From the IMG/VR virus record IMGVR_UViG_3300032284_000540, positions 1-55,448 of that record: DNA of 55,448 nucleotides. One strand, written 5' to 3'. The stretch is from a virus (lineage: Duplodnaviria > Caudoviricetes). This document shows, one piece after another, positions 7,246 to 55,448 of this stretch. A model generated the notes under the pieces. The model was not told where the DNA came from and ran no database searches. It was given only the letters and a program-made list of their open reading frames with translations. Numbering within the stretch: the first letter of the stretch is position 1; each line of letters starts with the position of its first letter. The position numbers and the translations under genes were made by a program.

Positions 7246-10200
7246 CTAGAACTGAATTACTATATTTATTTTCTCGGACGAAGTATTCGACCTAGTGAAA
7301 GGCGTTAAATTTTCCAAGTATAATACCTTTCCGCTGTTTCTAGTCAAGTCTGGATACGTTATAGACTTTGCCAGAGAAGGAACACCGGTCGCTGCAGAAC
7401 TCGCTCCTGTCACGGCATTGTTTCCTACTTGAAAAGTACCTACTACGTCCGACAGCACCAGAGAAGTATATACTCCGGCCAGCGCTCCGCCTATATTTAG
7501 GTTGTTCGTTACAGTGTCTCCGATAATAAAGACTCCGTTGGCCGCCGTACATCTAACGTAGCTATTGTTCGCCACGTAAGTCACAATGGCAGTAGCTCCT
7601 GTGTTTGCGTCAGTAAGAGTCTGACCAGCAAATATCGTACCGTTAGAAGAAGTGAAAGCCAAGTCTATGTCGGTGTTAGTACTGACTACCGTGCCGTACG
7701 CGTTAGTAACCGCCTGAGTCACCGTTTCGTACAGAGAAAATGCTCTGTTGTTAGAAGTCAAAGTGATCCTACCAGTCTGTACGAAACTGTGCACGAAGTT
7801 GGCCGAAGAATCCACGGTGTCGTTCGCCGTATATATCGATACTACTGAAGCAGAAGCGTTGGTAGCAGGATCATAGACTATATCACCGGTGTTTATATGG
7901 CCGGTAACGTTAGAGACTTGTATAGTAGTGTTAGTAACTGCCTGTGTGATGGTACCAGTCGACAGAGTATTTTTATCCTTTAGTGTCTCTACGTCTGAGT
8001 ATACAGAAAAGTATACTATGTTCGACGTAGTAACGTTGGCCGTTGTGTTAGAAGTTAGGCCGACTATCTTATTATTGTTAGTGTTAGAGAACTGGTGAAG
8101 AGTAGCCTGCACACCGGTAAGCTGCAAGAAGCTGCTGTTGGCATAGAGCACGGTACCGGCAGCGTTAGTAGAGGGCTGAAACACCGTCTCTCCTACCGCG
8201 AAAGAGTTAGACTGAGTGTTAGACACTGCGACATCAAGCGTAGTAAAAGAGCTCAAGTTCAAGTATACTTGCTGGAACTCTGGAGACTCTAGTATTCCTA
8301 TACGTCTGTAGCTCCCGTACAACGGGTAACGATAGCTCTCCGAGTACCCGTTGCCGAACGTCATCGATACACCGACGTACTTGGCTCCCAGCTCGGAGTA
8401 CACGTTCGCGCCGTGCCCTAGAGCCGGGCTTATAGCGGCGCTTAACGCAGCTCCGGACCCGTAAGAGTTATTAGAAGATATAGAAATGTTGGCGTATGTA
8501 TAGTTTTGGCCGTTGTTTATCAGGACAATGTCTGATATCTGTCTAGACAGATTGTTTCCGCTAGTATCGACATACGCGTATGCTACGGCTCCGTTACCGT
8601 CTCCAGAGATGGTGACTTTTGGTGATATCACGTACTCTGTCAGCTCGTTAGGAGTTATTGCGTAAGAGACTACGGTAGCAGACGATACTGGAACAGTGCA
8701 TGCTGTCGGGTATATACTTATATTTTCTCCGACTAAGAAGTCGCCGCCGGGTGATGTTACTGTTATGTTAGGATATGAGTTCACTGATACTATATAAGCT
8801 CTAGCGTTAGAAGAAGCTCCGAGCATGTAGAGGTTCGCCGTCAGCGTTCCAGAGACGTTAGAGAGTATCAACACACTAGAGTTAGAGAATGACACTACTC
8901 CGTTCGCGGCCTGATTCACGTTGTTGACGTCTACTTGAGTAACCAGCTCTCCAGGAATGAAGTTAACACCCGCCGGTGTCGTGTTAGATATATTCAAGCT
9001 CTGACCAGTAAGGTTCGTATATACTACCTGACCAGACAGGTCTATGGAAGTGAGCGAAGACGGTTCGGCTGCGTACGGTATAGAGTAGTACACGTTGGCT
9101 ACTAGCGTATTAGAGAACGGAGTAGCGGGATTAACCGTAATAGAAGTCGTGTTAGAAGCCGTGATTCTTCTTATATTGAACTGATTCAGCCCGCCAGAGT
9201 TTCCTACTTGAACGTAAGTACCCACTGCAAACACACTAGTGTTGATAGTCGTGTTACCTACCACGGACACCACGGTGTTACCAGATACGACGCTTACTGT
9301 CCCGGTTCCTGCTAAGCCGCCGTGTGAAGTATCGTAGATCGGATAAGAATATAAGTTAGACCACTGAGAAGCAGCCGTGTTAGGCTGCAATAAGATACCA
9401 GAAGAATTGGACTGAGATACTACACCGTTGTATCCGGACACGGACTGGTACACCGTGTCTCCTATGTTGAAGTACCCCGTTGGATAGACATAAGACAAGC
9501 TTACTAAGTTCTGAGTTACGACGTCTCCTACTATGACATTGGAGCTAGTCACGTTTGCGAGACCTAAGTTGACGTAACTAATAAAAGGAGGATTAACTAG
9601 TATCTGCTTGGAAGTACCGGAGTAGTTAACGACGTTGCTGATCTGGCCAGCTCCTCCGCCGGCTTTCAAGTAGATAGAAGATCCCGTGTAGTAGTTGTCT
9701 TGCGGCGAAGAAGTAGACGGGAGCTGAACTACGTAGTTGTTCACTACTGCCGCTAAGAATCCTTCTTCGTACACCTCGTATCCCTGCCCCGGGTTAGTGA
9801 GAGCCAGATAGTCTATCGTGCCGGGTACGGCGTTGCTCTGCACGTTCGCGTTTATAGTGACCGGGACGTAAGTGTTAGAAGTGAAAGTACTATTCGCAAT
9901 GGAGCTTATCGTGTACATGTACTTCCAGATATATCCGTCGACCGTAATAAAGTTTCCGGACGGAGTATTAAGAGCAGGTTTTACTATTGAGTTGGCGCCG
10001 TTATTATTGTATATACACTTATAAACTTCTCCGGCATCAGTGACTACAAAGAACTTCTCGTTGATCAAGTTTCCGTCGTACTGTGAGTACTGCGCATAAG
10101 TCGTATTGTTAGTCCACTGATAGTTGGGTATCATATAAGAGATGTTGTTACTGAATATCAGCTTACCGTAGCTAAGGTCTTGATACAGAGACAGCTCGGT

Positions 10201-26865: not shown

Positions 26866-26928
26866 GTATTCTCCGTATTGTTTGTATTAACAGTATTAGT
26901 GCAGGGACTCCCCGCGATATTATTTATG
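26866..26928 (-). promoter_or_regulatory. gp32 leader: late promoter, small hairpin and four AATAC repeats (putative translational operator)
   Basis: CATAAATA (26921-26928), hairpin GCGGGG-AGT-CCCTGC (26901-26915), then AATAC at exact 9-nt spacing. Confidence 0.6.
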
Positions 26929-27762: not shown

Positions 27763-28223
27763 ACCCTTCCTTCTTCGATCATATGATTAATCATCCTAAT
27801 ATATAAGCCCAGTTCTCTTCCGTTAGCTTCTATCTCCCACGGATGATCCCAATAGTCTATCTTATCAAAGTTGTATTTCTTATTTTTCCATTTTACTATA
27901 TGTTTGTCTTTGAAGCTCATACGAACATATTCTCTACTTGCATATTGCTTAATATGAACTAGCTCATGAGCTATGGTCGATAAACATGGTCTAAAACCAA
28001 GCTTATTGTTTATCAACATCTTATAGCTATATTTGTATTCTATAGGATCGTAGTAGGGGCAATCACCCATCAGATCTGCAGGAAGATCTATGAACTCTAT
28101 GAGAATTTTAAGCTTCTTTCTAAGAGCTTTCTTGAATATCTTCTCCGAGTAATAGACTACGGCTTCTTCAACCAGCTTCTTCTTGAGCTTCCTTGGCGGC
28201 TTGCCTTTTACCGTCAACTTCAT
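27759..28223 (-). CDS. Putative zinc metallopeptidase (HExxH)
   Basis: HELVHIKQY...HPWEIEA; TATAAATA late promoter at 28250-28257. Confidence 0.75.
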   Translation of the reverse strand: MKLTVKGKPPRKLKKKLVEEAVVYYSEKIFKKALRKKLKILIEFIDLPADLMGDCPYYDPIEYKYSYKMLINNKLGFRPCLSTIAHELVHIKQYASREYVRMSFKDKHIVKWKNKKYNFDKIDYWDHPWEIEANGRELGLYIRMINHMIEEGRV

Positions 28224-28260
28224 ACTGGTCTCCGAGAGTTAGTCGGAGATATTTATACCC

Positions 28261-28485
28261 TTATACTGGAAGCCTGGCTCCCTTCTTACGGAGATAGTTT
28301 ATGCTCTCTGCTTCAGCCTTAATCTTAGACTTGAGAGTCTTGTTTCCTTTAATGATATGCGCTACGAGTTCTACTTCTATGGAACGAGCCTCGCACCAGT
28401 ACACGACCGCTTCCATCATCGATATATCGAGTGTTTTTCGTATCTCTTCTACGTCGAGAAGAAACTTGTTCTTGTTTATGTTCAT
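28261..28485 (-). CDS. gp33: Late transcription coactivator gp33
   Basis: EAVVYWCE...IEVE......LKSKIKAEAE.INYL...ARLPV. Confidence 0.88.
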   Translation of the reverse strand: MNINKNKFLLDVEEIRKTLDISMMEAVVYWCEARSIEVELVAHIIKGNKTLKSKIKAEAESINYLRKKGARLPV

Positions 28486-28500
28486 TGCTATTAACCTTTC

Positions 28501-28609
28501 AATCGGTTGGAACGATTATGATGCTCGCCTGCCATTGCGTCGGCCACGAATAGAAATCGGAAAAATATTCGTGTCCATCGTCCTCGTTACGTCCGATTAA
28601 CACCAACCG
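28501..28609. ncRNA. Candidate structured RNA element (multi-helix with pseudoknot), family not recognised
   Basis: Four nested inverted repeats plus a 7-bp loop-to-flank complementarity; see findings. Confidence 0.5.
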
Positions 28610-29108
28610 CCATATTATTTATTTCAACTACTTCATCAAACCCCTCGTCGAGGGCCGGTACTTCAAGATTGGCACGCATCTCATCCAATACCGACTGCGG
28701 AATACACTTGCCCGGGCGTGAGGCAAGGCGCCGCTTCCACTCAGTGTCATCAGGAACAGGAAAAAAGATCGCAATTTTTTTATACGTCTTAGGAAGCTGA
28801 GCCATCTTACGCGCGCGGCTCTTACGAGTTAGGTTGGTCTGATCTAGAACGATGTCAGAACGATTCTTAATGGCATTAGACATCTTCTGGTTTACGATCT
28901 TTTGGGCTTGATCAATGAAGAGTTTAAAGCCTTGATCATACGCAATTCCTTGAGAGGCGCACATCTTCTCGATCTCGGCATCAGTAGAGAGCGGAACACA
29001 GTCGACGAACGGAACATCTTGATAGTCGTTAGTCAACCATGTCGACTTACCGGTACCGGGAAGACCGACCAGCATTAAAAAAATTGGTATGTTATTACTC
29101 AGTTGCAT
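28587..29108 (-). CDS. P-loop kinase (AAA_33 / polynucleotide kinase-like)
   Basis: Walker A GLPGTGKST and DQTNL..KSR. Start moved to ATG 29108, which has GGAGA upstream. Confidence 0.85.
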   Translation of the reverse strand: MQLSNNIPIFLMLVGLPGTGKSTWLTNDYQDVPFVDCVPLSTDAEIEKMCASQGIAYDQGFKLFIDQAQKIVNQKMSNAIKNRSDIVLDQTNLTRKSRARKMAQLPKTYKKIAIFFPVPDDTEWKRRLASRPGKCIPQSVLDEMRANLEVPALDEGFDEVVEINNMAVGVNRT

Positions 29109-29214
29109 ATGCTTCTCTCCAACGATCGACGATATAGAAGTTCGGATTATCACGAACGATCTCTCGAACTTCATCGAGAGTAACATTCCTAGGGAACTCA
29201 TAGTGTATAGTCAT
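29095..29214 (-). pseudogene. 39-aa ORF, possibly a truncated RNA ligase (Rnl1-like) N-terminus
   Basis: MTIHYEFPRNVTLDEVREIVRDNPNFYIVDRWREAYATE*, directly after an early promoter and overlapping the kinase start. Confidence 0.4.
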
Positions 29215-29220
29215 GAGTAT

Positions 29221-29250
29221 ATAATACCACTCTCTAGCGTGAATGTAAAC
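29221..29250 (-). promoter_or_regulatory. Early (sigma70-type) promoter
   Basis: GTTTACA-N17-TATTAT. Confidence 0.8.
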
Positions 29251-40881: not shown

Positions 40882-40956
40882 TGGAGCGGAGAGAGGGAAT
40901 CGAACCCTCGACCAACAGTTTGGAAAACTGTGACTCTACCACTGAGTTACCCCCGC
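40882..40956 (-). tRNA. tRNA-Gly (anticodon TCC)
   Basis: Cloverleaf GCGGGGG TA ACTC AGTGGTA GAGT C ACAGT TTTCCAA ACTGT TGGTC GAGGG TTCGATT CCCTC TCTCCGC T CCA. U73 discriminator, encoded CCA, and CATAAATA upstream (40983-40990). Confidence 0.95.
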
Positions 40957-40987
40957 AGACTTTGTTTATTCGGAATAAATAATATTT

Positions 40988-41488
40988 ATGGATATGACTA
41001 GTGCTATAAGATGGTTGGCAATGCAGCGAGGCTGCATGTGTGAGATGTGTGGTCGTGGCGAATGGCTTAAGATCGTGACGTCTACTGGCAAGATACCAGA
41101 TTATTTAATATTATACCACAAAGACGGAGACGTTGTAAACAATAATTTGGACAACGTATCATTAAGATGCGACACGTGTTCTAAACTAAGAGACGCCAAG
41201 AAAGTAGCGTTCTTGACACCGGCAAAAGGAACGAAGAACGCCAATCATGCACACGTAGGAAAGTTATACATACACAAGGGCGCGCAGAACAAGTTTGTGT
41301 TTCCTAGAGACCTGGAAAGATACTTGGCCGAAGGATGGGAGAGAGGTAGGATCACTCATACCAGACCCCCGCCACACACTGGAAAGATCAGAATAACCGA
41401 CGGAGTAAGAAATAGAATATGGGAAAAAGACGTGCCATTACCAGAAGGATGGTGGAGAGGTCAGGTCAAGAAAGATGACTCTTTCTGA
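40988..41488 (+). CDS. Free-standing HNH endonuclease-like protein (possibly degenerate)
   Basis: CEMC...YHKDGDVVNNNLDNV...CDTC plus two EGW..G repeats; on the opposite strand to its neighbours. Confidence 0.75.
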   Translation: MDMTSAIRWLAMQRGCMCEMCGRGEWLKIVTSTGKIPDYLILYHKDGDVVNNNLDNVSLRCDTCSKLRDAKKVAFLTPAKGTKNANHAHVGKLYIHKGAQNKFVFPRDLERYLAEGWERGRITHTRPPPHTGKIRITDGVRNRIWEKDVPLPEGWWRGQVKKDDSF

Positions 41489-52445: not shown

Positions 52446-52847
52446 TTATCGTTGCCCGGGTGTCGACTTTTTATAGATCCTGACCAGTGAATCAGTAGAA
52501 TCGAAGCGAGAATCAGAGTCGTTCGGGTCTTTAGACTGCGGTTCTACAGTCTCTCCGGTCTTAAAATGATCCGAAGTCTCATGAGGCGTCTTTAACCTAG
52601 CGTGCTTGTTTATCTTGGCTATCAGCTTGGCTCTATGCAGGGAGTTGTTTCTGGCTTCGGTATAGACTAGTCTTGACGCTTCTGGCGGCGCAATTTCATC
52701 TTCTTTTATAGACTTAGAATTCTTAAGATCGGCCGCTGTCGGCCTGCCCTTCTCGCCCGGTCTGCGCATGCGCTCGCCGGAACCGTGCTTGATCCTCTCC
52801 TGCTTGGCATGAATGTTATCCCAGAGGCCTCTTTTTTCATCTAGCAT
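52446..52847 (-). CDS. Small basic hypothetical (internal head-like) protein
   Basis: GLWDNIHAKQERIKHGSGERMRRPG.KG.PT and C-terminal YKKSTPGQ motifs. Confidence 0.7.
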   Translation of the reverse strand: MLDEKRGLWDNIHAKQERIKHGSGERMRRPGEKGRPTAADLKNSKSIKEDEIAPPEASRLVYTEARNNSLHRAKLIAKINKHARLKTPHETSDHFKTGETVEPQSKDPNDSDSRFDSTDSLVRIYKKSTPGQR

Positions 52848-52857
52848 CTTCGTTCTC

Positions 52858-54474
52858 TTATAGTGATTCTGTTAAGTTCCATGTACATACTATATTGGCG
52901 GCCGAGCCGCCAGCTACCAGCTGTCTTATACCAAGAGTAAGAGTAAACGGATTCCCGTTTATGTCTGAACCGACGTTAAATTCTCCCGGAAAACTGTTGA
53001 ATGATTGTAGAGCTGCGGCAGAATCTGTTAGACCGGAAAGGAGCACGGATCCTCCCGTCATAGTAGCATTGTTTGCCCAATTCCAGTATTGGCTGGCTCT
53101 TCCTATGTTAGCAGTATTAACTGCTCCGTTGCCGTTATAAGCGTAAGTAGAGTTAACGTTGGCGTTAAGTATTACCTCATACAAGAAAGTACCGGGAGTA
53201 GAATTTTTTCCTTGGTTGTTCGTATCTATGATAGAAATATCACTCGGATTTATGCTCGATCTATTATAGGGAGAACCCGAACGCAGTCCTATAGTCATTA
53301 GCGGAGTGAGGCTTCCGGCTGGAACATACCCGTTTATATTCACGGCAGTCGTGGGAGAAGGATTTACCGTAGATACGGTCTCGGACTGATAAGTAACCCC
53401 CGTCATATTGAAGACTGGAGCGGTCGTCTGAGCAGCAGTGTTTAAGATCTCTCTTCTAAGAGGAAGACTTCCTTCAGTGACGAAAGGAATATTTAGAGTA
53501 CCTGTATAAGACTGAACGTGTGTTATCTGTGGACCGATCGGAGATCCTATACCGAATCTGATTCTTCCGGTACGACCCCCGATAAAGTCGAACCAGAAAG
53601 TATAGTATTCATTTAAGCCGGAAGAGAATATATTCATTCCGGACGGTCCGGTACCGTCTAGCTTATCAGTATTAAAACTATTAGCGTATACTCTATCTTC
53701 TACAATATTCCCGTTAGCCTGTGTCCTTCTTATGACTACTGCTATGGTATTAGCTGTTTGTTCCCAGAACAAACCGGCAGCGGTATCGAATAAGCCAGTT
53801 CTTCTAGTGACTCCCGTCTCAGTGGAGTTAGCAGAAAAATTTACGGAAGAGTATACTACGTGCGAAGTACCCGGAATTATAGAATACTTTTGAGTAGTCT
53901 GTCTATAGACGTAAGAGTTTATCGTGTTACCTGGAGTCATTTGAATCTCTCCAGTATTAGCCATGAAAGACGATCCTGCTCCAGATCCGGAAGAAGCTTC
54001 CGACCATCTTAAAACGGTGTCGTCGTCTACTAAGGGCGTGAACCAGTTCTGAGTCAGTGTGCTAGAAACACGTATCTTCGTCAGAGCGTCTGTCGACCAG
54101 GTAGGAGCAGCTTGCGTATAGACATAGCTAGTAGTATTAGACAGTATCTTTACTGTCTGGTTGGCAAAGGATACGTTCTGAGTTACTGGAAAATTGTTTA
54201 CGGTTAAGTTGGCTGTTATACCAGCCAAGTTTCCAGATATATTCACGGTCTGGTTGGCAAAGGATACGTTCTGAGTTACTGGAAAATTGCTTATTGCTAC
54301 CGTGGTACCGATGTTGACATTACCCGTTATGGTAATAGTATTACTGCCGAGAGTTACAGGAAGAGGATTAGTATTGCTTATAACAGAACCGTTATTAGAA
54401 GCAAGCATCATAGTCTCGAATAGAGTCTTGTTTCCAGCTTGGAAGTTTCCGTTAGCAGAATTAAACGTAGCCAT
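52858..54474 (-). CDS. Putative virion structural protein (beta-sandwich/lectin-like)
   Basis: 538 aa, S/T/N-rich; FNTDKLDGTGPSG and G.IRFG motifs; ends W..E. Confidence 0.7.
   Translation of the reverse strand: MATFNSANGNFQAGNKTLFETMMLASNNGSVISNTNPLPVTLGSNTITITGNVNIGTTVAISNFPVTQNVSFANQTVNISGNLAGITANLTVNNFPVTQNVSFANQTVKILSNTTSYVYTQAAPTWSTDALTKIRVSSTLTQNWFTPLVDDDTVLRWSEASSGSGAGSSFMANTGEIQMTPGNTINSYVYRQTTQKYSIIPGTSHVVYSSVNFSANSTETGVTRRTGLFDTAAGLFWEQTANTIAVVIRRTQANGNIVEDRVYANSFNTDKLDGTGPSGMNIFSSGLNEYYTFWFDFIGGRTGRIRFGIGSPIGPQITHVQSYTGTLNIPFVTEGSLPLRREILNTAAQTTAPVFNMTGVTYQSETVSTVNPSPTTAVNINGYVPAGSLTPLMTIGLRSGSPYNRSSINPSDISIIDTNNQGKNSTPGTFLYEVILNANVNSTYAYNGNGAVNTANIGRASQYWNWANNATMTGGSVLLSGLTDSAAALQSFNSFPGEFNVGSDINGNPFTLTLGIRQLVAGGSAANIVCTWNLTESL
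54155..54289 (+). repeat. Perfect 42-nt direct repeat inside the CDS
   Basis: 54155-54196 is identical to 54248-54289; encodes NFPVTQNVSFANQT twice. Confidence 0.9.
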
Positions 54475-54477
54475 GAC

Positions 54478-55101
54478 CTACTTCTCCATAGAATTTTTTA
54501 CGTCATGGAATAACTCTTTAGCATGTTCATGAGAGACGTGATCAGGAACACCTTTACGAAATTCTTTGAAGTTATTGTTCTTGGCATGCTCGCGCATCTT
54601 CGATGCAGACATGCCCTCTGCTCCTTCTGCATCAGGATCTCTATGACCGGCAGACACCACACTAATCTTCTTGAAACTATAGGGTATCTTTCCTGACTTG
54701 TCTGGCTTCCCGTTATAAGTATGCAGCAGCTTCTCGTACTCTGGGACTCTGTCGGACCCTGCTACCATTATTAGATGATCATGACCAGCTTTGTTTAGAC
54801 GAGCGGCATGATGTAATAGAGTAGGCTCGTTCTTTGTAGCAGCTTTTATATTAGTGTGCGGAAAGAACCTCTTGGCGTGCTTCACTTTAGTCTTGGGATC
54901 TAGCGGGTTCTTCTTCTTGTCCTGCGACCCGGATAGCACGACTTCATGATACGCCCCGTGCTTCTTTGCTAAGTCGTGTACTTTGTTAACTAGAACTTGA
55001 TGTCCTGTAGTAGGAGGATTCATGCGGCCGAAAGCAAACACTACCGGCTTCTTCGGCTTATCTTCTTCCTCTTCTACTATGAAATGTTTAAACTTCTTCA
55101 T
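54478..55101 (-). CDS. HIGH-class nucleotidyltransferase (cytidyltransferase/NMNAT-like)
   Basis: FGRMNPPTTGH, KNPL, VAGSDR and SAG.RDPDAEG..GMSASKMR motifs. Confidence 0.88.
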   Translation of the reverse strand: MKKFKHFIVEEEEDKPKKPVVFAFGRMNPPTTGHQVLVNKVHDLAKKHGAYHEVVLSGSQDKKKNPLDPKTKVKHAKRFFPHTNIKAATKNEPTLLHHAARLNKAGHDHLIMVAGSDRVPEYEKLLHTYNGKPDKSGKIPYSFKKISVVSAGHRDPDAEGAEGMSASKMREHAKNNNFKEFRKGVPDHVSHEHAKELFHDVKNSMEK

Positions 55102-55448
55102 TTCCTTGAGATTCTTTCTTCGCCTGCTGCATCTTACCAGCCAGGAAATTCTGGCGCGAGAACTGCTTCCTATTTACAAATTTTGACATGTCGCCGTTCT
55201 TCGTCACTGCTACTGCACCTTCCGGTCCGGTCTTGGCTCCGCCGATGCTATGTTCGAACTCTTGATTCTTAGCCATGACGTTAGTCAGCACATCTTTCGC
55301 GTCTTGTAGATGTTTATGAAGCTGCAAAGCTTGATCAAAGTCTTTCTTATGATTAGTAACATGCTTTATAGTATCAGACAGCTTCTCTCTCTTCTGCTGC
55401 TTACTCTTTTCTGTCTTAACCTTATCTATCTCTTTCTGACCCTTATTA
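55088..55448 (-). CDS. DUF6267-like protein, C-terminal part (start lies beyond window)
   Basis: Frame is open to the window edge (NKGQKEIDKVKTEKSK...); C-terminal PEG.V......KFVNR..FS..NF; usual partner of the nucleotidyltransferase. Confidence 0.7.
   Translation of the reverse strand, partial: NKGQKEIDKVKTEKSKQQKREKLSDTIKHVTNHKKDFDQALQLHKHLQDAKDVLTNVMAKNQEFEHSIGGAKTGPEGAVAVTKNGDMSKFVNRKQFSRQNFLAGKMQQAKKESQGNEEV

Follow-up and report, generated by a model that had tools for sequence, protein, structure and literature searches.

What is the compact RNA element that lies directly upstream of the late-transcription coactivator gene gp33 in a T4-like phage, and does it serve to control that gene? 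The element spans about 108 nucleotides (nt) of the window, by which we mean the whole analysed stretch of 55,448 nt (IMG/VR record IMGVR_UViG_3300032284_000540), a 55-kb fragment of an uncultured T4-like phage with a CheckV completeness of 33. A first-pass annotation, made from the sequence alone, had described a pseudoknotted RNA that was unrecognised, could be matched to no known family and could not be assigned to a strand. According to our analysis it is almost certainly a phage-borne member of the Rfam family RF02496 (Atu_At1) with the family fold, and it lies on the minus strand, the same strand as gp33. The motif is real and functional; it is not an unrecognised one, and a role as a dedicated regulator of gp33 is not supported. 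The phage copy is a new find; the RNA motif itself was already known.

The assignment comes from an Rfam scan of the whole window, which returned two matches above threshold, one tRNA and the following:

28505..28612, minus strand: full-length, untruncated match to RF02496 (Atu_At1, 'Rhizobiales sRNA'), 100 bits (gathering score 60), model positions 1-108 of 108

The E-value of this match is 2.8e-16 in the whole-window scan and 4.6e-18 locally, and model R1, built in this analysis, scores the window copy 107.2 bits. Both loop motifs of RF02496, GUGUYAAYCRGAC and UUUUUCYGRUUUC, whose cores are complementary, are present. No other Rfam family matched between 28100 and 29000 up to E = 10, and tRNA and Y RNA models gave no match at the element site, where the scan returned RF02496 only. 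Because RF02496 matches over its full length at 100 bits, the description as unrecognised fails and the novelty of the motif is lost; the same match settles the strand as minus.

The architecture is that of a self-contained RNA closed by helix P1, with two three-way junctions and a pseudoknot between the loops of P2 and P4. Its parts, in 5' to 3' order and with double changes counted in an alignment of 130 sequences, are as follows:

28603..28609, minus strand: 5' strand of P1, CGGUUGG, pairing with 28504-28510; double changes in 6 of 7 P1 pairs
28590..28602, minus strand: P2 hairpin of 4 base pairs (bp), whose 5-nt loop AAUCG (28594-28598) takes part in the pseudoknot; Rfam consensus structure, 98.8% paired
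28576..28588, minus strand: 5' strands of P3a and P3b with an internal loop, pairing with 28511-28523; the stop of the upstream open reading frame (ORF) lies here; double changes in 10 of 10 pairs
28545..28573, minus strand: P4 hairpin of 7-8 bp (28545-28552 with 28566-28573) with the conserved U-rich loop UUUUUCCGAUUUC; double changes in 7 of 7 pairs
28555..28561, minus strand: pseudoknot partner UCCGAUU within the 15-nt P4 loop, forming a 5-bp core with 28594-28598
28531..28544, minus strand: P5 hairpin of 3 bp (GCC 28531-28533 with GGC 28542-28544) and an 8-nt loop; double changes in 3 of 3 pairs
28524..28530, minus strand: joining strand AGGCGAG after P5, in conserved columns of the alignment
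28511..28523, minus strand: 3' strands of P3a and P3b, from the Rfam consensus structure and covariation
28504..28510, minus strand: 3' strand of P1, CCAACCG, closing the whole element; P1 is exactly 7 bp and does not extend into the flanks

The window copy has standard pairs at 35 of 36 positions, and the helices of the Rfam consensus structure are those of an independent RNAalifold consensus. All five pairings listed in the first-pass annotation, the pseudoknot included, are present in the sequence where it had placed them; every helix it gave was right, and only the small P2 hairpin (28590-28602) was missed. The pseudoknot can be extended to 7 bp (28592-28598) at the cost of two P2 pairs.

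The evidence that carries this fold is comparative. Homologues were sought by means of a degenerate pattern covering both conserved loops, in which complementary positions were free to mismatch. The pattern matched 14 viral stretches and at least 120 stretches in species-representative genomes, and all 13 of the 13 new viral sources carry a full-length RF02496 match (78-99 bits). Pattern matches, four plasmid loci and the window together made 139 instances, from which 5 exact duplicates and 4 that ran off the end of a locus were removed, leaving 130; bacterial copies in all counts are those among the matches listed. Pair cells were standard in 94.0% of cases. Shuffles gave 79.0%, none of 500 coming up to the real figure, and sliding the partners gave 34-45%. 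Double changes were present in 28 of 36 pairs, with a covariation score of 0.491 versus 0.201 (130 distinct sequences), so that the covariation in homologues which had been named as a check was indeed found. P2 varied on one side only. The two variable pseudoknot pairs were CG in 90, UA in 37 and UG in 3 sequences, and GC in 119, AU in 9 and GU in 2, with no mismatches, and it is by this covariation of pairing that the pseudoknot, which is our own reading, is shown. RNAalifold, run independently, gave 26 of 31 predicted pairs with double changes. Since the search pattern fixed the loops, their motifs are invariant in the 130-sequence set by construction, and their conservation rests on the Rfam consensus and not on our own alignment. 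Taken across these sequences, we regard the comparative evidence for the fold as decisive.

Single-sequence thermodynamics do not set the element apart from shuffles, which weighs against its being more than chance. Folding gave z = -0.59 on the minus strand, where 57 of 200 shuffles folded at least as well, and z = -1.22 on the plus strand; folding better than shuffled controls, likewise named as a check, was thus not obtained. The conserved nested fold has -24.9 kcal/mol, compared with -31.1 kcal/mol for the minimum free energy (MFE) structure, which is a different, pseudoknot-blind fold. This MFE structure uses a pairing of AATCGG with CCGATT, proposed earlier as an alternative beside the gp33 Shine-Dalgarno (SD) sequence; the pairing exists, but has no counterpart in L009, the nearest phage relative.

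The founding member of the family, At1, lies on the At plasmid of Agrobacterium fabrum C58 at 55274-55161. In the original report it measures 113 nt by differential RNA sequencing (dRNA-seq) and 115 nt on a Northern blot, is among four small RNAs (sRNAs) strongest at high optical density, and has a 5' end that dRNA-seq maps as a primary start (Wilms 2012, PMC3384568). The earlier suggestion of a stable small RNA is therefore right for the family, given the 115-nt Northern band. At1 scores 115.3 bits with RF02496, and in the annotated record its 3' end lies 50 nt ahead of the start of ligD (52456-55110, same strand). Between At1 and the ligD start on the Agrobacterium pAt, a GC-rich hairpin is followed by AUUUGU (L142:3612-3665, minus strand); both are conserved in other ligD-linked copies, and the hairpin may be an attenuator or an SD-masking element.

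The window copy shares with At1 the full-length match, the helices, the conserved loops and the length of ~108 nt. It differs in its carrier, a T4-like phage and not a Rhizobiales replicon, in being followed by gp33 and not ligD, in lacking the GGAAC..GTT promoter described below, in a P1 of only 7 bp and in an AT-richer RNA.

The bacterial copies have a characteristic promoter-like motif. GGAAC was found 36-44 nt ahead of P1 in 84 of 116 bacterial copies with enough flank (controls 3/116 and 2/115), and among the 78 copies aligned on it, 77 had a T at the 24th position and 65 had one at the 23rd. According to the respective studies, GGAAC-N16-CGTT is the motif of the Rhizobium etli general-stress sigma factor EcfG1 (PMC3892343), and the ku and ligD genes of Sinorhizobium meliloti are under RpoE2 (EcfG) control (PMC6379672); the motif match and the control of ligD agree with the promoter motif of the bacterial RNA. 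We infer from the motif that the bacterial copies are probably driven by an EcfG-type stress-sigma promoter, GGAAC-N16-(C/G)GTT.

What follows the RNA is varied. We surveyed 110 distinct downstream contexts, and as a control read the upstream flank in the outward direction. In 27 of them an ORF of 50 or more codons, preceded by an SD, started no more than 60 nt past P1 (median ~26 nt; control 4/110), an intrinsic terminator lay within 90 nt downstream in 13 (control 3/110), and 70 had neither by these strict rules. The adjacent ORFs encode LigD (10 loci), Exo_endo_phos, alpha/beta hydrolase, PNPOx-like, GXWXG/DUF4334, porin, MFS and MASE1-PAS histidine kinase proteins, and in a Shinella/Ensifer group the gene next to the RNA is convergent. 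All-against-all clustering of the flanking ORFs showed no conserved protein neighbour beyond synteny among close relatives. P1 was longer by at least 4 bp in 38 of 117 bacterial copies (control 5%), and is often 11-17 bp and GC-rich in bacteria. Five genomes that were checked had 1-3 copies of the RNA. Of 41 genomes sampled from the family to which one Agrobacterium genome belongs, 12 had a match above cut-off, so the RNA is an accessory trait; a class-level sample, with a match in 1 of 151 genomes (the centre genome itself, 23 candidates being scored per genome), was not used for prevalence. Among the matches listed, records of the RNA also occur in Sphingomonas, Sphingopyxis, Devosia, Labrys and Cereibacter/Rhodobacterales, and thus beyond 'Rhizobiales'.

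In viruses we found 12 distinct copies in varied places, next to tRNA genes, within replication modules or immediately ahead of unrelated ORFs; these places include the following:

Window and L009, both T4-like: RNA between the phrog_11903 gene and gp33
L010 and L021: RNA directly after tRNA-Met and ahead of the large terminase, with 2 nt between the encoded CCA and P1
L015: RNA among tRNAs, 15 nt before a weak tRNA-Sec-like element
L011: RNA between SSB and a Cas4-type exonuclease
L008: RNA ahead of a helicase
L017: RNA ahead of a DNA polymerase
L020: RNA between MazG and the clamp
L012: RNA ahead of a 93-aa ORF

None of the 12 viral copies has the GGAAC promoter motif ahead of P1. In L009, a perfect TTTACA-17-TATAAT ends 7 nt before the RNA. 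The tRNA-Met genes with encoded CCA are at L010:4119-4194 (minus strand) and L021:430-504 (plus strand); because they abut the RNA, its 5' end in these two loci must come from processing. The tRNA-like element at L015:7154-7236 (minus strand) has an 8-bp acceptor stem and 25.4 bits for tRNA-Sec (cut-off 47), with no ARAGORN call. Searches of cultured-phage records by blastn, for which the queries were the copy in the window, two further viral ones and one from a bacterium, gave no match over the RNA, with the limit that blastn is weak on RNAs of 110 nt and does not show absence; the sole matches were to tRNA-Met in the flank.

The phage copies keep the structure. Standard pairs number 33-36 of 36 in 11 of the 12, and 29 of 36 in L018. 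Between the window and L009, whose gp33 and gp59 proteins are 59% and 54% identical, the RNA shows 6 double changes. Comparison of these copies thus shows that the fold is kept up in phage lineages. In a core tree made with FastTree, 11 of the 12 viral copies fell in one clade with support of 0.80.

How closely, then, is the RNA linked to gp33? The features around the element in the window are:

29221..29249, minus strand: sigma-70-like promoter TTTACA-17-TATTAT with TG, ahead of the kinase ORF; 10 of 12 matches; 3 such sites in the window against 2.0 expected, a weak signal
28587..29201, minus strand: AAA_33 P-loop kinase-like ORF, 204 aa as listed; PF13671 76.2 bits; phrog_6931, phrog_2071, phrog_505
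28616..28623, minus strand: AATAAATA, a T4-late-promoter-like motif (NATAAATA) by motif-level inference, ending 6 nt before P1
28495..28500, minus strand: gp33 SD sequence GAAAGG, starting 4 nt past P1 and 9 nt ahead of the ATG, read from the sequence
28261..28485, minus strand: gp33 late-transcription coactivator, 74 aa; Pfam PF16805 Trans_coact 63.1 bits, cut-off 25; phrog_254
28250..28257, minus strand: exact TATAAATA, just past the gp33 stop and ahead of the 154-aa gene; it also follows gp33 in L006

The order on the minus strand is a phrog_11903 gene (380 aa), a 70-aa ORF, the AAA_33 ORF, the element and gp33, followed by a phrog_10499 protein (154 aa), an 85-aa ORF, gp59 and gp32. The window gp32 is ~50% identical to gp32 of T4-like cyanophages and of Sinorhizobium phage phiN3; the search for related loci found no relatives of the 380-aa protein. 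The AAA_33 ORF reaches 26 nt into the RNA, with its stop at 28587-28589, and its last 8 codons and stop (28587-28612) coincide with P1, P2 and the first part of P3a. The element had been placed in a GC-richer gap of 100 nt. There is a spacer, but since the kinase ORF runs 26 nt into the RNA it is smaller than stated, and the enrichment is mild, with a GC content of 0.50, whereas the window as a whole averages 0.443 (sd 0.063); among stretches of 108 nt, 19% are equally GC-rich.

Relatives of this locus argue against a dedicated role. Among 80 loci with a gp59 relative (42-58% identity; 70 extend 1400 nt or more upstream), the RNA was found in a single one, which is the L009 contig, so the RNA is not a gp33-specific control device. 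In L009 itself a 98-aa signal-peptide-like ORF separates the RNA from gp33, and there is no kinase gene. The earlier proposal of a function dedicated to controlling the late coactivator is not supported, given the 79 of 80 T4-like loci without the RNA, the intervening ORF of L009 and the unrelated genes or terminators that follow the RNA elsewhere.

The window suggests how the RNA might be transcribed. NATAAATA is strongly biased in strand, with 22 sites on the minus and 4 on the plus strand. At 18 of the 22 minus-strand sites an ORF start lies within 80 nt downstream, including gp32 and several very long ORFs, and of the other four one precedes the tRNA and one the element; minus-strand examples are 28250-28257, 26921-26928, 7263-7270 and 2850-2857. 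Taken together, these sites look like the T4-type late promoter set of this phage. A start ~6 nt after AATAAATA would fall at ~28610, 1 nt before P1. The tRNA gene of the window (40885-40956, minus strand, 65.5 bits) has CATAAATA at 40983-40990 (minus strand), 27 nt upstream, so that both non-coding RNA genes of the window stand behind a late-promoter-like motif. The sigma-70-like site at 29221..29249 is a possible, weak candidate for a source of early read-through into the RNA and gp33. With three promoter types in the family, GGAAC, TTTACA-17-TATAAT and NATAAATA, the transcript has the RNA right at its 5' end.

Regarding the mode of action, we posit that the element is an autonomous, closed, nuclease-resistant RNA whose conserved core would bind a partner, either a protein or a small ligand, and that it was probably not built as a regulator of gp33. 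In bacteria, it would be a module fired by the general-stress sigma factor from an EcfG-type promoter, and phages would have placed this module under their own promoters or in tRNA arrays. The phage RNA may be transcribed as the first part of the gp33 message, from AATAAATA or by read-through from upstream, and may behave, by analogy, like At1, a discrete species of 113-115 nt in dense Agrobacterium cultures. We give a probability of about 0.42 (range 0.4-0.45) to the view that the element works mainly as an autonomous stable RNA by way of a partner that it binds. It is preferred over a gp33 switch because At1 accumulates as a discrete RNA though ligD follows, because copies followed by terminators or flanked by tRNAs have nothing to regulate in cis, because a lengthened P1 is more in keeping with a locked stable RNA than with a helix that switches, and because the neighbouring genes share no pathway and related phages do without the RNA.

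Several observations weigh against an autonomous RNA acting through a partner. The start, end and stability proposed for the RNA during infection are all predictions, and the late-promoter interpretation uses a motif that is one departure from TATAAATA. No terminator-like site was found between the RNA and gp33 in the window, and the gp33 SD begins so close to P1 that, physically, some influence on gp33 in cis can hardly be escaped. The contexts with a nearby SD-preceded ORF (27/110, control 4/110), which are the window and 26 others without an intervening terminator, fit a leader equally, no partner is known, and the clustering of flanking ORFs showed no conserved neighbouring protein gene. 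The viral clade could be an artefact of base composition. Finally, contigs from four aquatic metagenome runs of one study cover the stretch at 99%+ identity with one single-nucleotide polymorphism in the RNA, and this natural variant, 28547 C>T (RNA G66A), turns the P4 pair C42-G66 into C-A, with no compensating change seen. The variant population has one change in the 108-nt RNA against six in 593 nt of flanks, and therefore shows no excess constraint on the RNA at that scale. Whatever its main role, the RNA is likely to have some effect in cis, on translation or on stability.

The alternative that survives best is a riboswitch-like or protein-binding 5' leader, in which the domain would sense a ligand or factor and set the translation or stability of the next ORF, so that late transcription would be tied to the state of the host. 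The architecture, with its junctions, pseudoknot and many conserved unpaired bases, resembles an aptamer, and it shares with riboswitch aptamers the P1 that closes the domain, the multi-way junctions, the tertiary contact between loops and, often, a position just before an SD and start codon. In both the window and L009 the SD starts 3-4 nt past P1, the promoter always puts the RNA at the 5' end, and the 27 contexts with a closely following ORF involve unrelated families (LigD, Exo_endo_phos, alpha/beta hydrolase, PNPOx-like, GXWXG/DUF4334). Riboswitches differ, however, in that here no ligand is known, no coherent gene set follows and many copies stand alone before terminators. An association with the genes of a single pathway, which would point to a ligand, was not found, either among the bacterial families or among the phage neighbours (helicase, polymerase, clamp, Cas4-type exonuclease, terminase and gp33). 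The 13 terminator-ended contexts have no gene behind the RNA, a P1 of 11-17 GC-rich bp is poorly suited to switching, and the alternative helix of the window, the sole alternative pairing seen there, is missing from L009. The ligD copies have a GC-rich hairpin after the RNA, and no general expression platform was found. At1, moreover, accumulates as a discrete 115-nt RNA (PMC3384568), and 79 of 80 related phage loci lack the RNA. We consider such a leader rather unlikely, even as the foremost competitor of the autonomous RNA. Put-like cis-antitermination in phage HK022 offers an analogy only.

A more specific and more speculative form of partner binding is that the RNA is an orphan aptamer or ribonucleoprotein core of the alphaproteobacterial general stress response, which binds a stress-linked metabolite or host protein. 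It would have been captured once and shared among phages, for which the single clade of 11 of 12 viral copies is cited, and would read or subvert host stress, here by coupling gp33 synthesis to it or by titrating a host stress factor. We hold this version to be doubtful.

Less probable still is a passive 5'-terminal stabiliser, a compact fold that shields the 5' end from decay, with the 113-nt species as a decay remnant. The position at the transcript 5' end under three promoter types, the base-paired ends of the RNA and the link to stress or stationary phase in bacteria are consistent with such a role. A simple hairpin would suffice for it, however, whereas the invariant loops, the covarying pseudoknot and the conserved joining strands imply specific recognition, and copies followed by terminators or flanked by tRNAs have no mRNA to protect.

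We see little prospect for a self-cleaving ribozyme or processing signal that would set the gene downstream apart from the kinase message, or from a tRNA, ahead of it. The compact pseudoknotted fold, the 2 nt between CCA and P1 where the RNA abuts tRNA-Met (L010, L021) and the place of the element inside a polycistronic stretch in the window could be read in its favour. No known ribozyme family matches, however (Rfam, 28100-29000, E up to 10), and in Agrobacterium the 5' end of At1 is a primary start according to dRNA-seq (PMC3384568).

A leader-peptide attenuator, in which a translated 20-codon ORF (MDTNIFPISIRGRRNGRRAS) would control gp33, is scarcely credible. The ORF noticed in the first-pass annotation does exist, with a GAGG nearby, and in 121 of 130 copies the U-rich loop is preceded by an ATG, GTG or TTG in frame; such a start is common because the conserved GAUGG contains AUG. 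The start codon is at the window position in 45 of 130 copies, however, L009 has GAG there, and ORF lengths range from 12 to >200 codons, so that neither start position nor length is conserved. In addition, the GAGG is 3 nt from the ATG and inside the P3a/P3b helices, and peptide similarity stems from nucleotide conservation, with stem codons changing as base pairing predicts. The leader peptide is thus rejected, and the 20-codon ORF is treated as a by-product.

A chance cluster of inverted repeats in a spacer, for which the unremarkable MFE z-scores (-0.59, -1.22) could speak, is refuted by the full-length Rfam match (E ~1e-16 to 1e-18) and the covariation across 130 homologues.

Among other known systems, GsrN of Caulobacter is one of the nearest, being an EcfG/SigT-dependent alphaproteobacterial stress-sigma RNA of ~100 nt (Tien 2018, PMC5869019). 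As described in that study, GsrN and its proposed homologues lie beside the ecfG-nepR-phyR locus and work by means of an exposed C-rich 5' loop, together with Hfq (PMC5869019). The Atu_At1 family, in contrast, lacks a C-rich loop, has a closed pseudoknotted fold and occupies scattered accessory loci. Identity with GsrN was considered and, on the phyR locus and C-rich loop as given in this source, rejected.

Stable non-tRNA RNAs beside phage tRNAs include T4 species 1 and 2 ('RNA C/D') and the large GOLLD and ROOL RNAs. These resemble the element in being structured phage RNAs of unknown function, and the L010, L021 and L015 copies abut tRNA genes. They differ in that no sequence or model match to them was found, with RF02496 the sole Rfam match, and in that Atu_At1 has bacterial chromosomal and plasmid members with stress promoters.

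To the Rfam label, which is just 'Rhizobiales sRNA', our analysis adds a covarying pseudoknot, a stress-sigma promoter motif in ~3/4 of the bacterial copies examined, the position of the RNA directly ahead of ligD and other stress-type genes, a range beyond Rhizobiales and at least 12 distinct viral copies that keep the fold, under phage promoters or beside tRNAs. These family features were not found in print: in the literature we found no paper with the family name or accession in a relevant context, or one joining ligD to a structured RNA motif, though supplements may list At1. At1 (atu5055) is not mentioned in the main text of the Hfq RNA immunoprecipitation sequencing (RIP-seq) paper or of a second Agrobacterium non-coding RNA survey, whose supplements might list it. 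Atu_At1 thus stands as a well-defined orphan structured RNA that is testable in a tractable host, Agrobacterium fabrum C58, and as a case of phages carrying a host stress-response RNA.

Two further observations were made around bacterial copies. In several Rhizobiaceae a conserved ORF of ~69 aa (MI[ND]PP...) starts ~24-29 nt past the RNA (L003:3135-3344, plus strand; also L115, L079, L121, L123, L127 and L064); the searches made gave it no family name. On the Rhizobium gallicum replicon, the sRNA ar35 (RF02346, 133.7 bits; L003:2704-2845, minus strand) lies divergently, ~150 nt upstream of the Atu_At1 copy.

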